Assembly: GCF_004010195.1 (NCBI RefSeq)
Contig: NC_057718.1
Coordinates: 75,993,843-76,057,842 of the forward strand
Reading direction: 5' to 3'
Length of the DNA stretch: 64,000 bases
From: Chiloscyllium plagiosum
Lineage: Eukaryota
Shown: piece by piece, positions 20,993 through 60,335 of the stretch
Layout: the number at the start of each line of letters is the position of its first letter
Numbering within the stretch: the first letter of the stretch is position 1
Notes under the pieces: generated by a model
The model's database searches: none
The model's input: only the letters and a program-made list of their open reading frames with translations
What the model was told of the DNA's origin: nothing
Translations under genes and position numbers: made by a program

Positions 20993-21109
20993 CTTGTTTC
21001 TTTGATTCAAAGGTTCAATTGTTAAGGAGTCAACACCAATGTCAATAATGGAACCCAGCTGGAACCCATCCAGGGGATGTGGAGCCCACACAGGCTTCCC
21101 GTCGTCCAT
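20993..21109 (-). CDS. MYO6: Myosin VI, first coding exon (39 codons, [39 protein letters not shown])
   Basis: Peptide matches the vertebrate myosin VI N-terminus (human [39 protein letters not shown]). The 117-nt coding part ends at a phase-0 donor AAG|GTGAGC. ATG is in a strong Kozak context (AACATGG) with an in-frame upstream TAG. Confidence 0.97.
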
Positions 21110-21138
21110 GTTCACTTTTCTTAACTAACCACGATTCC
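21110..21138 (-). other. MYO6: 5'UTR part of the MYO6 first coding exon (splice acceptor at 21140-21139)
   Basis: Minus strand reads TTGTGTTTTGTTTTCTTAAACTAG|GGAATCGTGG: a T-rich tract plus AG, 29 nt before the ATG. This implies an upstream non-coding exon. Confidence 0.75.
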
Positions 21139-22429
21139 CTAGTTTAAGAAAACAAAACACAAGCAAATAAGTTTATGCTTTTTATAAACATAGTGCATCT
21201 GGCAACTAAAAATGGTGTCCCATCAAGTGTGATTAGTTTAGAATGGTGTCATGGTCAGCATGGTGGGCTAAATTGCCTGTTCCTGTGCTGTAAGTCTTAC
21301 TGTAGCACATTTTAAGCATACAGTGATACCTCTGAGTTCCTTGCACCTGAGCTGGAAGGATACAGTGAGAGGACTGAAGGAAAGAGGAAATAACATCATG
21401 GAGAAGCACCTCCATAAGCACTTTGAAAAGGCGGCGACAAGGTGGCTTTAACCAAAGTTGATCGAAAACTTTTGGCGTGGGGTGGTGGTAGGACAGGGAG
21501 TTGGTGTTGGGGTGCTGCACAGGTGAAGTTATGTCACAATTTAAAGAATGAATGAATGTTTCAACATAATATTTTTCCAATTCAATAGCTTTTCTCTTCA
21601 AAATCATTTAGGAGTTAAACAAATGAAGCAGTTATATAAGTGAAGTAACCTTTTTACTCTCAATGATCAGCTAACACCAAGTTGTTATTTCTAAATCATG
21701 GGAACAAGTAAATAATTTTAAAAGTTAAACAGATTACTTTGATAAGCTGAGAAACATGGTTCCAACAAAATATGTTTGAGACAAAAATGCAGGTGAATTA
21801 AAAATAGTGGTGATTTAATAGCTATGGACATTTCCCACACCAATTTATTGACTAAATTACAATTATAATTTGGGAAAATGCAGCAAGTATTAAGCAATAT
21901 GGGACACAGTTGTGTACATAGAATTTGCTCACAGATCAACAATGAACTCACTGAATGTGGCAGAGGAAGTCTTTTAGAAATCAATGTTATTATTATTAAA
22001 TTACTGTATGAAATGACTATTTACCATTAAATCATTATTTTTAAAATGTTAAATTAGTCAATTTTAATTATTGCATGTTAATGATATTGATTGGCACAAC
22101 AAGATGTCATAAGACAAAAAAATTATCTTGATGTATAGGGTGAACGATCGGACTGAATAGATTTCTGTTGTCCCAGCTTGAAATGACATACAAGAGGCAT
22201 TGTAAAGAAGAAAGGGTTGAAGATGGGGTAAGTAGTTGGCAGGGACAGGGAGGTCAAGAGGCGATTGTCAAAGAGAAGGATAATGGTGACAGATTTAAAA
22301 GGAGAGTATTTGTATCAGTCCCAAGGTGTACAAGACAAAAAGGTTTCTGCAATATAGGCCTCTGTTTCCAGCAATGTTGAAGTCCTGAATTACAAAACAA
22401 TTGTTTCCTACCCATCCTAATATGATAAA

Positions 22430-34504: not shown

Positions 34505-34697
34505 TAGAGTGGTGGTGGAAAAGCACAGCAATTCAGGCAGCATCCGAGGAGCAGGAAAATCGCATTTCGGGCAGAAGGCCTTCATCAGGAATAGATGTCA
34601 ATTTTCCTGCTCCTCGGATGCTGCCTGAACTGTTGTGCTTTTCCAGCACCACTCTAATTTAGATTCTGGTTTCCAGCATCTGCAGTCCTTGTTTTTA
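34505..34697. mobile_element. Fold-back Penelope-derived mini-element with a perfect 15-bp TSD
   Basis: 57-bp inverted arms 34504-34560 and 34601-34657; minus-strand CTGATGA-A-GGCC-TTCT-GCCC-GAAA; TSD CCTAGAGATTCAGGT at 34490-34504 and 34698-34712. Confidence 0.88.
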
Positions 34698-35671: not shown

Positions 35672-36829
35672 GCCTTACACAGTTTTATAATATCATGAGG
35701 AGCACAGATAAGGTGAATTGCAAAGGTCTTCTCCCCCAGGTCGGGGTGTTTAAAACTAGAGGGTATATTTTTAAGGTAAGCTGAGAGGAGGAAGATTTAA
35801 AAAGGGACCTTAGGAGCAACTCTTGGAAGCGGCAGGGCATCAGCTGTGGTGGTGGCAGTGCCCAGAGCACAGCCTCCTGGCTGCAGTACATCAGGAGCAG
35901 AGGCTCTTGGCAGTGTGTTAGTGGCTGCAGCAGCAGCAGAACCAGGGTCTCCTGGGGCATCAATGTTGTCATTGCTTTATCTGGAACAGGGATTCCTTGA
36001 GGCCTGTAACACCTTGCAAAGGCTCTGAGCCAAGTTTGAAAACCAATTTGACAGAAAGAATTTGATTTAAGTAATTCCTTCTTATTGTTTTTGTAACTCA
36101 AAATAGCATCAGATTGTGATAACACAACACTTTTCACTACATGTGAGACAATGAAATCATTCGTTCATGAAAGGTTTAGAGGGATATGGATTAAACACAG
36201 GCAAAGGGACTAATTTGGTTTGGGAAACCTGATTGGCGTGGACAAGTAAGACCAAATGGTATGTTGCCATGCTGTTTGACTATAATATTAGTATAAAGTT
36301 TTATTTAATCAGAATTACAGTCCTCAGGACCAATATACACTTCAACACAGATTTTACAATATCTGATGACTGAGAACATTACAACGAGACAACAGACAAT
36401 GCATGCCAGACTAAAACTACAGCTCCAGGCTTCAAGGCCATTAACAGCCATAAACATTTTAATAGTCATCAGGAACATACTCACTGTCAGAACTCCACTA
36501 TGCATCTCACCAAAGCTTAATATCCTCTGACAGATAAAGGAATAGTTAAAATAGGGATTTCTTTAAAGTAAAAGGTTGTAGTGTCTGCTGGTTAAGAATT
36601 GGATTGAGAACAATCTGTTACGTATTAGTATTAGGAGTAAGATATTTGCCCAGTTAAACCTGTTCCGACAGCTTCACAAAACCTACTTAAAAAAGGAACT
36701 TGTACAGAAATTACAAAAGAAAGTGAAACAATGAACTGATTCAAAGTGAGTGCCAGTCATAACGCCTTTTAGGCAATGCCAAATTTCACAAAAAACTTCA
36801 GAACTCTGAGTCCATTCAAGTCTCTGCTA

Positions 36830-38050
36830 TAATAAAACAAAAATGCAGATGCTGGAGATCTGAAACAATAACTGATATTGCAGAAACTCTGCTATCTTCC
36901 TGCAGATACTGCCAGATCTGCCGAGTTAATGCTTTGAGTCCTGGAGGGAATAATCTCTGCAGACTCCCTTCTGTAACAGTGGTTTCCTGCCCACTGTGGT
37001 TGACACGGACCTCAACAGCATCCTTTCTTATCATCACCTGCACTTCCACCCTTACCCTTCCCGTCATTCACAACTGTGTGATCGGGATCCCCTTGGCCTC
37101 CCCTTTCACCCACCAGTTCCACATTCAAAGGATCATTCTTAGTCATTTCAAACAAGTCAAGCAGAACACCACCACCAAACAAGTCTTCTCCTCACTCCCC
37201 CTGCTTGCGTTTCACAGGGATCGTTCCCTCCAGGACACCCTAGTCAATTTCTCAACCAACACCACTAATTCCCCATTACCCCTTCCCACAGCACCTTCCC
37301 ATGTAACTGCAGAAGTTGCAACACCTTCCCCTACACCTCCTCCCTGCTCACCATCCAAGGGCCAAAACTGTCTCTCCAAGTGAAGCAGCATTTCACCTGT
37401 ACCTCTACAATCTTCTGTACTGTATTAATTGCACCTAACGTGGCCTACTCTTCATTGGAGAAACTAAACACAGACTGGGTGACAAATTTGCAGAACACCT
37501 CCAGTCTGTGTGGAAACAGAACCCAAACCTTCCCATAGCTGGTCATTTTGACACAGCCCATGTGTCTGTCCTCAGCATGATACAATGCTCTAGTGAATCA
37601 CAACGCAAACTGGAGGAACAACATCTCATCTTCAGACTAGGCACCTGGCTCAATCTTGACTTCAATACCCTCAAATTGTGAACTTCCTCCCATTCCTTCC
37701 CTTTTTGAGCTTTACTAGTTATATTCTCTGTCAGCATGTCCTCTCTCCCCTTCTCACACCACAATGGGACTGTCTGCTCCCTCAAATCTGGCAGTTAGAC
37801 ACACTACTGCTCTACATTCTCACATTCTGATCACAATCTGAATTATCAACATCCTTTCTTCCTCAGCACTCCATACCAACCCCACCCTGACTCACTACAC
37901 CATAAATGCTGTCCTTCTAAACTTCACTGCACCTCTGAAGAAAAGTCATCTAGACCAGAAACACTAGCTTGCTTTCCCTCCAGGGACCCGCTCTGATTGC
38001 CAGCATTTTTTTTCAGTACATATTCCAGCATCTGCTGTAATTTGCTCCCA
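36830..38050 (+). mobile_element. 5'-truncated Penelope-like retroelement (RT C-terminal linker, GIY-YIG endonuclease, pseudo-LTR)
   Basis: HIQRIILSHFKQ...PLLAFHRDRSLQDTLV (ORF 36934-37383), then frameshifted FPCNCRSCN, FTCTS, GLLFIGETKHRLGDKFAEHL and RKLEEQHLIFRLGT. The pLTR has CTGAAGA...GAAAC at 37935-37962, and an inverted pLTR-like segment lies at 36830-36925. Confidence 0.88.
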
Positions 38051-44089: not shown

Positions 44090-44589
44090 NNNNNNNNNNN
44101 NNNNNNNNNNNNNNNNNNNNNNNNNNNNNNNNNNNNNNNNNNNNNNNNNNNNNNNNNNNNNNNNNNNNNNNNNNNNNNNNNNNNNNNNNNNNNNNNNNNN
44201 NNNNNNNNNNNNNNNNNNNNNNNNNNNNNNNNNNNNNNNNNNNNNNNNNNNNNNNNNNNNNNNNNNNNNNNNNNNNNNNNNNNNNNNNNNNNNNNNNNNN
44301 NNNNNNNNNNNNNNNNNNNNNNNNNNNNNNNNNNNNNNNNNNNNNNNNNNNNNNNNNNNNNNNNNNNNNNNNNNNNNNNNNNNNNNNNNNNNNNNNNNNN
44401 NNNNNNNNNNNNNNNNNNNNNNNNNNNNNNNNNNNNNNNNNNNNNNNNNNNNNNNNNNNNNNNNNNNNNNNNNNNNNNNNNNNNNNNNNNNNNNNNNNNN
44501 NNNNNNNNNNNNNNNNNNNNNNNNNNNNNNNNNNNNNNNNNNNNNNNNNNNNNNNNNNNNNNNNNNNNNNNNNNNNNNNNNNNNNNNNN
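44090..44589. other. Assembly gap (500 N)
   Basis: Run of exactly 500 N. Confidence 1.
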
Positions 44590-55575: not shown

Positions 55576-55662
55576 AGGCGAGAGTGTGGTGCTGGAAAAG
55601 CACAGCAGGTCACGCAGTATCAGAGGAGCATCGACGTTTTGGGCATAAGCCCTTCAACAGGA
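55576..55662 (-). mobile_element. Single-arm hammerhead mini-element with an 11-bp direct-repeat flank
   Basis: Minus strand CATC-CTGTTGA-A-GGGC-TTAT-GCCC-AAAAC-GTC-GATG; flanks TGTGGGTTCGC (55565-55575) and TGTGGGTTCAC (55663-55673). Confidence 0.75.
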
Positions 55663-57494: not shown

Positions 57495-58620
57495 ATTCAT
57501 TCGTGGGATGTGGATGACGCTTGCCAGCATTCATTGCTCATTCCTAGTTGCTGTTGAGAAGGTAGTGTTGAGTTGCCTATCTGAACCGCTGCAGTCCAGA
57601 TGCTGTGGGTTGCCATACTATGCTTTTAGGGAGAGTTTTCCAGGATTTTTAACCAGCAGCAATGGTAAAATGGTAATGTAGCTCCAAGTCAAGATAGTGA
57701 ATGGCTTGGAGAGGAACCTGCAGGTTGTGGTGTTCCCATGTGTCTGCTGCCCTTGTTCTTGAAAAAAATGGTCATGGGTTTGGAAAGTGCTGTCTGGGGA
57801 TCTTTGGTGAATTTCTGCAATGTATTTTTTGGATAGTACACATTCCTGTGACTGAGCGTCAGTGGTGAAGGGAGTAGATGGTTGTCAATGCCAATCAAGC
57901 AGGATGTTTTGTCCTGGATGGTGTCAAGCTTCTTCATTGTTGTTGGGGCTGCACTCATCCAAGCATGTGGAGAGTATTCCATCACACTCCCGACTTGAGC
58001 TTTACAGCTTTACAGGCTTTGTGGAGTTAGAAAGTGAAAGTGAGTTACTCACTGCAGTATTCCTAGATTTTAGTCGGAAACATCATTGAATGTCATGGGG
58101 TGGTGGTTAAATGGTCTCTTTTTGGTGATGGTCACTGCCTGGCATTTGTATGGCATAAATGTTACTTGCCAATTGTCCACCCAAGCCTGGATATTGTCTC
58201 GATCTTGTTGTGTTTAGACTGCGTAGAACAGACTGCTTCAGTATCTCAGGAGTTGGCAAACATTCCCACTTCTGATCTTATGATGGAGGTGGTCATTGAT
58301 GAAGCAACTGAAGATGCTTGGGCATAGGATACTACCCTGAGGACCACCTGCAGAGATGTCCTTAAGCTGAGATCTCCAACAACCAAGACCATCTTCCTAT
58401 GTGTCAGTTATGACTCCAACCAGCAGACAGCTTGCCCCTTATTCCCATCGATTCCCGTTTTGCTTGGGGTCCTTGTTGCCAAATGAAGCCCGACGCCAAG
58501 GGCTGTCAAACTCACTTCACCTCTGGAATTCAGCTGTTTTGTCCATGTCTAAACCAAGTCTAAAATAGAGGACCGGAATATAGGCCCTAGCGGAACTCAA
58601 ACTGGGCATCACTGGATACT
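57495..58620 (-). mobile_element. Second-lineage CR1-group LINE, 3' portion
   Basis: ORF 57689-57985 (MEYSPHAWMSAAPTTMKKLDTIQDK); homologous to 7300-8360. Confidence 0.8.
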
Positions 58621-58814
58621 AAACTAGCCTAAGCTCAACAACTGATGAAATCTTCCTGGTTCCTGGAGAGAGGAGAGTATTCCAGTAATCTCCCACTTCC
58701 TATAGTCTGTAAGCTTGAGGTCAGCCAAACCGCCACAATCATTGTTACAGCTCAAGTTCTATTCACCCAACACAACTATACTTGCTGAAGTAATGTGTGT
58801 CCTAGTTAAGTAGG

Positions 58815-59019
58815 AAATGTGTTGCTGGAAAAGCGCAGGTCAGGCAGCATCCAGGGAACAGGAGAATCGACGTTTCGGGCATAAGCCCTTCTTCAGGAAT
58901 CAGGGCTTATGCCCGAAACATCGATTCTCCTGTTCCCTGGATGCTGCCTGACCTGCTGCACTTTTCCAGCAACACATTTCCAGCTCTGATCTCCAGCATC
59001 TGCAGACCTCACTTTCTCC
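58815..59019. mobile_element. Young fold-back Penelope-derived mini-element with a perfect 15-bp TSD
   Basis: Inverted arms of about 77-80 bp (58813-58889 / 58902-58981); TSD TCCTAGTTAAGTAGG at 58800-58814 and 59020-59034. Confidence 0.92.
58864..58901 (-). ncRNA. Minimal type I hammerhead ribozyme motif with an intact core
   Basis: GAUUC-CUGAAGA-A-GGGC-UUAU-GCCC-GAAAC-GUC^-GAUUC: helix I (4 pairs plus U.U), CUGANGA, 4-bp helix II, GAAA, palindromic ACGU in place of helix III, and a GUC cleavage triplet. Confidence 0.75.
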
Positions 59020-59039
59020 TCCTAGTTAAGTAGGGCCTC

Positions 59040-59325
59040 ATTATTGTTTCAAATTCCTCCATGATCTCATCCTTTCTCTCTAGTCTCATAATACTTATAT
59101 CTGCACTGTTCCAATTCCGGCCCCTTGAGCATACTAATTTTAATTTTTCCATGATTGGCAACAAAGCTCTGGGATTTCCTCAATAACTGTTCCAGATCTA
59201 CCTAACATTACTCCTTGAAGAAACTCCTTAAAACCTACTTCTGTATTTCATTATGTGTCTGGTGTCAAATTGTACTGGATCAGACTTCTGTGAAGCATCA
59301 AGGAGTATCTTACCACATTAAAGAT
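59040..59325 (+). mobile_element. L2-type 3' end relic
   Basis: AAGCTCTGGGATTTCCTC...CTCCTTAAAACCTACTTC...TGTGAAGCATC; typical L2 3' phrases. Confidence 0.55.
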
Positions 59326-59839
59326 CTCAATCACATCCCAGAAAGGGGAATTCAGATATATCTCCACCTTCAGCTCAGATAAACACTCACATCTGTATGC
59401 GTGGAATTTTCCAAGCAAACACAGCAATCCAAGATAAAATTAGGATCACAAACTGCAGTGGGTTCTGTAAGCATTTGCAAACCAACAATCTGAGCTCTGC
59501 AAGGTTAATTTCTCATAGGAATGACAAGCCACTTCTGATTTTTGTGCCAGGATATGAAGACCTCATTTAGATCCCACACAATAATTTTCAATATCTTCTT
59601 CTGTAAGAGAAAAAAAATAAAATAGGACTACATGTTAAAGCCAATAATGAAGGAGCACTGAAGCAAAACCAACCTTTCTGGTTATCTCCATTTTATCAAC
59701 TTTATTAAATCCCAGTATAATGCTTTGGTATAAAAAGTACATTACACTGTTTCCCATATGAGACACAAAATGGTTAAGTGGCAAATTAATCACAATAGGT
59801 AAAAAAGTTTAACTATATATTAATATTAAGGAAATGAAA

Positions 59840-60335
59840 TCATAGAATCACTACAGTGTGGAAATAGGCTATTTGGCCCAACAAATCCACACCGACTCTG
59901 AAGAGTATCTCACCCAGACCCATTCCCCAACTATATTACTCTACATTTACCCCTGACTAATGTTCTTAACCTACACATCCCTGAACACCCCTGACTAATG
60001 TTCTTAACCTACACATCCCTGAACACTATGGGCAATTTAGCATGCTGAAGAGTATCTCACCCAGACCCATTCCCCAACTATATTACTCTACATTTACCCC
60101 TGACTAATGTTCTTAACCTACACATCCCTGAACACTGGGCAATTTAGCATGGTCAATTCACCTAACCTGCACATCTTTGGATTGTGGGAAGAAACCAGAG
60201 CACCTGGAGAAAACCCACACAGACACGGGCAGAATGTGCAAATTCCACACAGACAGTAGTTGGAGGCTGGAATCGAACCTGTGTCTCTGGCACTGTGCGA
60301 CAGCAGTGCTAACGCCTGAGCCACCGTACCGCCCC
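59840..60335 (-). mobile_element. HE1 V-SINE with nested internal tandem duplications
   Basis: Head ends at 60335; a 107-bp segment is repeated (59898-60044, 60045-60151) and a 38-bp unit is repeated (59949-59986, 59987-60024). Confidence 0.9.

Follow-up and report, generated by a model that had tools for sequence, protein, structure and literature searches.

Insertions of EN+ Penelope-like elements (PLEs) have been described in which an inverted, 5'-truncated pLTR lies head to head with its partner, a tail of 30-40 nt is found at one end only, and a target-site duplication (TSD) flanks the whole (PMC3846280; PMC8557442). The pLTR of these elements carries a hammerhead ribozyme, and a reverse transcriptase (RT) is followed by a C-terminal GIY-YIG domain. 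How the inverted ends and the tails are formed is still an open question (PMC8557442; PMC11167929). For Poseidon PAc, a PLE of Anolis, in vitro work found two internal start sites of reverse transcription that bound the tail, both strands being cut and extended; the uncleaved RNA is the template there, and the ribozyme needs an element protein (Frangieh et al., 2024, PMC11167929).

The minimal hammerheads of PLEs have no helix III and a short helix I, and they share an extra base 9.1, a G10.1-C11.1 pair and palindromic positions 15.2-16.2 (Cervera and De la Pena, 2014, PMC4209133). In that study, such helix-III-less ribozymes did not cleave as lone monomers and were weak as dimers, and motif pairs on opposite strands were noted too. 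Non-LTR retrozymes, which are non-coding, PLE-derived and equipped with a type I hammerhead, are direct tandem arrays with at least two cores (bioRxiv 2026.07.22.740005).

A Penelope end in intron 1 of MYO6

The window, which is the whole 64,000-nt stretch of Chiloscyllium plagiosum DNA analysed here, contains at 58815-59019 a 205-bp head-to-head fold-back with arms of 87 and 118 nt and no ORF. The shorter arm (58815..58901, minus strand) is tail-less and sense to MYO6; its 5' end, at 58901, is an extra G preceding ATTC, and compared with other copies it has lost 3 nt near 58834. The longer arm (58902..59019, plus strand) is antisense to MYO6, begins at helix II of the hammerhead (AGGGC) and is the only one to carry a PLE tail, of about 38 nt (58982..59019), of the type described in PMC8557442 and PMC11167929. 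The same 15-mer flanks the element on the plus strand as left (58800..58814) and right (59020..59034) copies of a TSD, the last 2 nt of the left copy being compatible with the element arm too and the first 2 nt of the right copy with the element's onward sequence. The tail up to 59019 and the 15-bp duplication are additions to what the original prediction had described.

That prediction placed an intact minimal hammerhead on the minus strand at 58864-58901, and every core nucleotide it listed is present. Read from 58901 to 58864, the strand consists of GATTC, CTGAAGA, A, GGGC, TTAT, GCCC, GAAAC, GTC and GATTC; by the definition of PMC4209133 it is a minimal type I core (58864..58901). It comprises the CUGAAGA box (58896-58890), the extra base A9.1 (58889), a helix II of 4 bp (58888-58877), GAAAC (58876-58872) and the GUC triplet (58871-58869), with the expected cut between 58869 and 58868. 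An ACGU palindrome stands in place of helix III. The core boxes, helix II, base 9.1 and this palindrome agree with the earlier assignment to the PLE type, and the G10.1-C11.1 pair and the palindromic positions are those of the published minimal motifs (PMC4209133), which a putative short helix I would match as well. Unlike these, the MYO6 copy has a helix II of 4 bp, a U.U mismatch in helix I and no nearby tandem partner with which to form a dimer. Helix I, also named in the prediction, is weaker than was implied: four Watson-Crick pairs flank the mismatch, its pairing probability in a single folded arm is 0.57-0.59, and its outer G (58901) is absent from the usual template of the element. The opposite-strand copy, read directly from the plus strand, lacks CUGANGA and has AUC for GUC (GAAAC-ATC), just as had been stated; the change from GUC is decay at 58920. 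The hammerhead pattern was matched in none of 100 shuffles of the window and is thus not due to chance within it; an Rfam scan of the window returned no match at gathering score.

The gene context was read from the exons. Near 21100, a frame on the minus strand has its match in myosin VI (E 4e-16), and together with spliced contigs it defines MYO6 exon 2, the first coding exon, at 20993..21137 (minus strand). These contigs, from runs X1 and X2 and presumed to derive from RNA, cover 20993-21139 and then run into sequence found once among 170 loci (L155), where it is followed by a GT donor. This places exon 1 at about G000:C9:76104620, beyond the window end; some 52 kb separate it from the element on its left, and intron 1 spans about 90 kb. 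The element sits in MYO6 intron 1 with its hammerhead in sense orientation, as predicted, and the exon positions confirm that the antisense arm is the first to be transcribed in the MYO6 pre-mRNA. Immediately upstream of exon 1 there is a GC-rich tandem repeat whose units measure roughly 35-40 nt (L155:6900-7200). The window itself also holds a 500-N gap (44090-44589), an older solo pLTR fragment in MYO6 sense with a broken CUGANGA box (55585-55662, minus strand) and the tandemly duplicated end of an abundant repeat (59898-60156).

The hammerhead copy is not special in the genome: its 28-nt core has 33,157 exact copies, and the element is an ordinary Penelope-type remnant. Judged from the coding remnants of its longer relatives, the repeat is the pLTR of an EN+ PLE. 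RT motifs (L203, L205) and GIY-YIG motifs (L213, L218) are located directly upstream of the same repeat, although the Pfam hits for these remnants are weak (E 1e-4 to 1.5e-3, at or below the cut-off) and one RVT_1 stretch in L213 resembles a different, joined LINE. The Cys motifs that precede GIY-YIG resemble those of Neptune, a candidate clade for the element beside Penelope/Poseidon. Among 30 loci with long upstream sequence, many of them with gaps, no copy with an intact full-length ORF was found. At 36763-37383 (plus strand), the window contains a 206-aa stop-free frame that resembles the PLE stretch between RT and endonuclease in L213 and has no Pfam hit.

The locus is thus like the known EN+ insertions in its head-to-head inverted pLTR, one-sided tail, TSD, pLTR hammerhead and RT-GIY-YIG relatives (PMC3846280; PMC8557442). 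Unlike the insertions presented in those papers, the MYO6 copy is composed of two pLTR stubs only, and the family combines a TSD of about 15 nt and a very high copy number with 5' ends piled at one point and an excess of G. With the retrozymes it shares its non-coding, PLE-derived nature and the type I hammerhead, whereas here the units are inverted and a single core is present. Elsewhere in the genome, L284 and L310 contain short units of about 195-210 nt repeated in direct tandem, with two hammerhead-like cores of which the upstream one varies at helix III; they resemble retrozyme units and could form dimers.

Taken together, the insertion is most probably (with a probability of roughly 0.77) a dead, 205-bp PLE end whose mirror-image arms likely arose in one insertion event, which would make the antisense arm a likely by-product rather than a regulatory sequence.

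Predicted sequestration of the ribozyme

The original prediction held that the antisense arm sequesters the ribozyme in a hairpin of about 77 bp and so acts as a built-in off switch. The structural half of this proposal agrees with RNA folding. The arms are 95-96% complementary, the fold-back has a predicted energy of -171.4 kcal/mol (z -22; none of 200 shuffles equally good), and its main hairpin has about 77 pairs, counted on the predicted structure. Within it the ribozyme fold is predicted to be abolished: the pairing probability of helix II falls from >0.99 without the arm to about 1e-12, and forcing the ribozyme fold would cost 38.6 kcal/mol.

As a function, the switch finds no such support. 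It would require that the antisense arm was retained to silence a ribozyme that otherwise cuts the MYO6 pre-mRNA, and the location, the order of the arms and the predicted sequestration are all borne out. Head-to-head geometry, however, puts an antisense arm first on either strand, so that this order is uninformative about MYO6. In a genomic sample, the core is covered by an antisense partner in 29 of 91 insertions and uncovered in the other 62. There is also little to switch off, as lone motifs are inactive in the assays of PMC4209133 and the anole ribozyme depends on a protein (PMC11167929); the MYO6 motif is such a monomer without helix III, an ACGU duplex would contribute just -3.1 kcal/mol, and within the intron 32 kb separate it from the closest other sense core. 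The arms, finally, show ordinary decay (the CpG loss at 58920 and the 3-nt deletion). Nothing found points to selection on the MYO6 copy, and an evolved switch, which if real would mute a genomic ribozyme by a new route, is very unlikely.

The sample consists of 91 core-bearing insertions taken in order along contig 1 (88 loci, most of the first 100 places listed; L070 and L082 were removed as duplicates of L069 and L081). Because it was selected for the exact core and comes from the first 8 Mb of a single contig, it is enriched in young copies that bear the core, and no main arm in it can start beyond +1. It contains 41 head-to-head fold-backs and 50 solo copies, and a duplication of 12-17 nt flanks 25 of the 41.

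A weaker form of the idea is that fold-backs are neutral in origin and that intact sense cores persist in introns mainly where an antisense arm covers them. Both sense copies in intron 1 with a CUGANGA/GAAA core are indeed in fold-backs, four solo sense fragments have no intact core, and the sole fully intact sense core is the covered one at 58864-58901; PLE-derived retrozymes are, moreover, reported as depleted in Xenopus introns (bioRxiv 2026.07.22.740005). This amounts to one fully intact case, and the second core (window-equivalent 91224) is uncovered, its partner beginning at +28. With 78-88% identity the solo fragments are old, and decay suffices to account for them. Such a passive filter is accordingly improbable.

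RNA data refer to the family and not to the locus. About 2,000 reads map to 57500-60000, all from sibling copies, and the unique flanks have a depth of 0. These reads show no pile-up of ends that would mark cleavage, a point on which this type of library is uninformative. Places with A>G plus T>C changes number 36 of 76 in RNA and 23 of 62 in a comparison run (P 0.23), again with reads from sibling copies. An apparent A>G change at 58920 was rejected as editing, since it is the CpG decay of the MYO6 copy itself seen against its siblings. In flies, Penelope inverted repeats yield siRNAs (PMC3681739), which makes plausible a passive double-stranded role of the fold-back as an ADAR or siRNA substrate, a possibility also raised in the original prediction.

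The probable 5' end of the copied RNA

The arms of the sampled copies begin at a narrow point. Of the core-bearing arms, 68 of 91 start within -9..+1 (positions are counted from the first C of CTGAAGA), where a later start is impossible by selection; among the unselected partner arms, 25 of 41 start within -9..+10. Run-off at the hammerhead cleavage site can be dismissed as the main stop, as 2 of 41 partner arms begin near it. Loose ends accumulate at 58900 in RNA reads and in the contigs of another run.

The base that precedes ATTCC is the template C in 24,716 genome copies, 11,998 of which have the five upstream letters also. It is G in 5,546 copies and A or T in 3,654, so that G makes up 60% of the non-template letters, compared with 28% expected from flank composition. 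In a control one base further in, G was found in 14 of 100 among the first 100 matches listed. Such an excess is expected if a capped RNA end is copied, and untemplated G in L1 and SVA insertions, an extra 5'-junction G in run-off copies as here, has been attributed to cap copying (PMC3287187). Solo copies, which number 17 among 50 G copies and 8 among 22 A/T copies, allow the junction to be viewed directly: a single clearly untemplated letter follows the TSD in 4 of the 17 G solos and in none of the 8 A/T solos. In 8 of the 17 the G is part of the TSD, a position that is also compatible with the annealing to the target of a cDNA whose last base is C.

Two other sources of the G were considered and rejected. 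A template variant with G before ATTCC is not the main source, for G is accompanied by the template upstream sequence in 73 copies only, compared with 11,998 for C, and long upstream sequence was found in 1 of 50 G copies. A splice-acceptor origin is contradicted by the template, which has CTC and not AG before ATTCC, and by the preceding letters (T 13, A 9, G 4, C 4; n=30). The G at 58901, which lengthens helix I, is therefore read from the sequence as a likely cap copy. In the shark family, the surrounding letters TCATTCC fit the initiator pattern. The Penelope element of D. virilis has an internal pLTR promoter (PMC2377424).

Two arms, probably from two priming sites

The 3' ends of the arms form two classes, one without a tail at about +90 and one with a tail at about +125. 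Of the 41 fold-backs, 31 pair a tailed with a tail-less arm, 8 a tailed arm with another end and 2 a tail-less arm with another end. None has two tails, compared with 9.3 expected if the arms were independent (P 2.7e-5). Exactly one tailed arm in 39 of 41 copies, and never two, favours a model in which both nicks prime and two start sites are used. The tail-less end also terminates 28 solo copies, which marks it as a priming site. Of 30 copies chosen for the first bases beyond the tail, 11 have a further stretch of template in common, which indicates initiation internal to a longer RNA; other copies that run past the tail also rejoin a core within 70-155 nt. The two internal sites of Poseidon PAc match these arm ends (PMC11167929); that work, in the sections consulted, does not derive inverted insertions from them.

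The arms of one copy resemble each other in their variants. Among 43 distinct copies with the type of junction seen in MYO6, the arms share minority letters in 76 cases, compared with 19 in permutations. In the unbiased set the figures are 17 and 5, from 28 of the 41 fold-backs (arms overlapping by 40 nt or more; four pairs with wide spacing excluded; L058 gave no pair). These shared variants argue for one source and are also compatible with self-priming or later gene conversion. In self-priming, which was proposed for the palindromes of rotifer PLEs (PMC3846280), a single cDNA, or an antisense template, would fold back and be copied from its own strand, and the variants common to both arms would follow directly. 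The junction can form a small hairpin as well. A cDNA primed at the tail would, however, retain the loop on its tailed arm when folding back, and a cDNA without a tail has none to contribute. In the MYO6 copy the arm that is longer at its 5' end is the tail-less one, and the extra 5' sequence lies on the non-tailed arm in 32 of 43 siblings with this type of junction, too. A single self-priming cDNA is insufficient here unless the loop was later flipped between the arms, which could rescue the model. That solo copies, too, were primed at the tail-less end further weakens self-priming, which is held to be unlikely. A second copy with the MYO6 junction, L037 (G000:C9:76185781), 133 kb away, has its core on the tailed arm, its loop being flipped relative to the MYO6 copy.

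The exact junction of the MYO6 copy occurs 31 times in the genome, each time at its own site, as would be expected of a palindromic mini-element that moves as a unit from a MITE-like master copy. Several observations speak against such an element. Junction copies amount to <0.1% of the core copies, 59 copies show a sister junction that has the template C, and junctions vary widely in the unbiased sample. The 43 distinct copies with this type of junction are mixed in their subfamily variants and in loop orientation (the non-tailed arm carries the core in 32 of them, the tailed arm in 11), which points to recurrent formation and not a single lineage. The mini-element is very unlikely. For the MYO6 copy we infer two separately primed cDNAs that were copied from one source and joined head to head.

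In this two-cDNA reading, the element endonuclease would nick both target strands about 15 nt apart, and each nick would prime reverse transcription, on one and the same kind of RNA, at about +90 or about +125 from the core. Both cDNAs would extend to a defined 5' end of the RNA, probably capped and situated just ahead of CUGAAGA, before being joined head to head by their 3' ends. Within the MYO6 pre-mRNA the copy would form the 77-bp hairpin, stay uncleaved and depart with the intron, and the hairpin may serve as a passive ADAR substrate. Opposite-facing cDNAs at two nicks are familiar from another class of elements. In L1 twin priming, two nicks prime cDNAs that face in opposite directions, and the resulting arms do not overlap. 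The shark arms are like those of L1 in the two nicks proposed for them and unlike twin-primed arms in that they overlap by about 80 nt and begin at two fixed internal sites.

As a locus the MYO6 insertion is ordinary, and it is the family that bears on how PLE inverted ends and tails form. Tentatively, and at somewhat less than even odds, the fold-backs may record the whole Penelope reaction, from an uncleaved capped RNA that starts 3-4 bases before the core, through priming from both nicks at two fixed internal sites and copying of the cap, which leaves an extra G, to head-to-head joining. The inverted pLTRs and the one-sided tail would then be explained, the element start site would be mapped inside helix I, and the genome would be seeded with hairpins of 60-90 bp, of the order of ten thousand, that feed ADAR or small-RNA pathways. 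Such a reaction predicts that each nick primes at a different RNA site, that the template has its cap immediately ahead of the hammerhead core and that the ribozyme leaves the copied RNA uncut. In the largely open-access literature on Penelope priming and ribozymes that was covered, no paper that argues for dual priming or for a cap-derived G was found.

The fold-backs of intron 1 also share an orientation. In all six (34509-34689 and 58815-59019 in the window; window-equivalent 77099, 91224, 104614 and 106927 in L152-L155), the arm whose 3' end extends further, a tailed arm in five of them, lies on the plus strand, antisense to MYO6 (P 0.03, post hoc). Beyond exon 1 this holds for 3 of 9, and the bias could reflect the direction of transcription or of the replication fork at the time of insertion.
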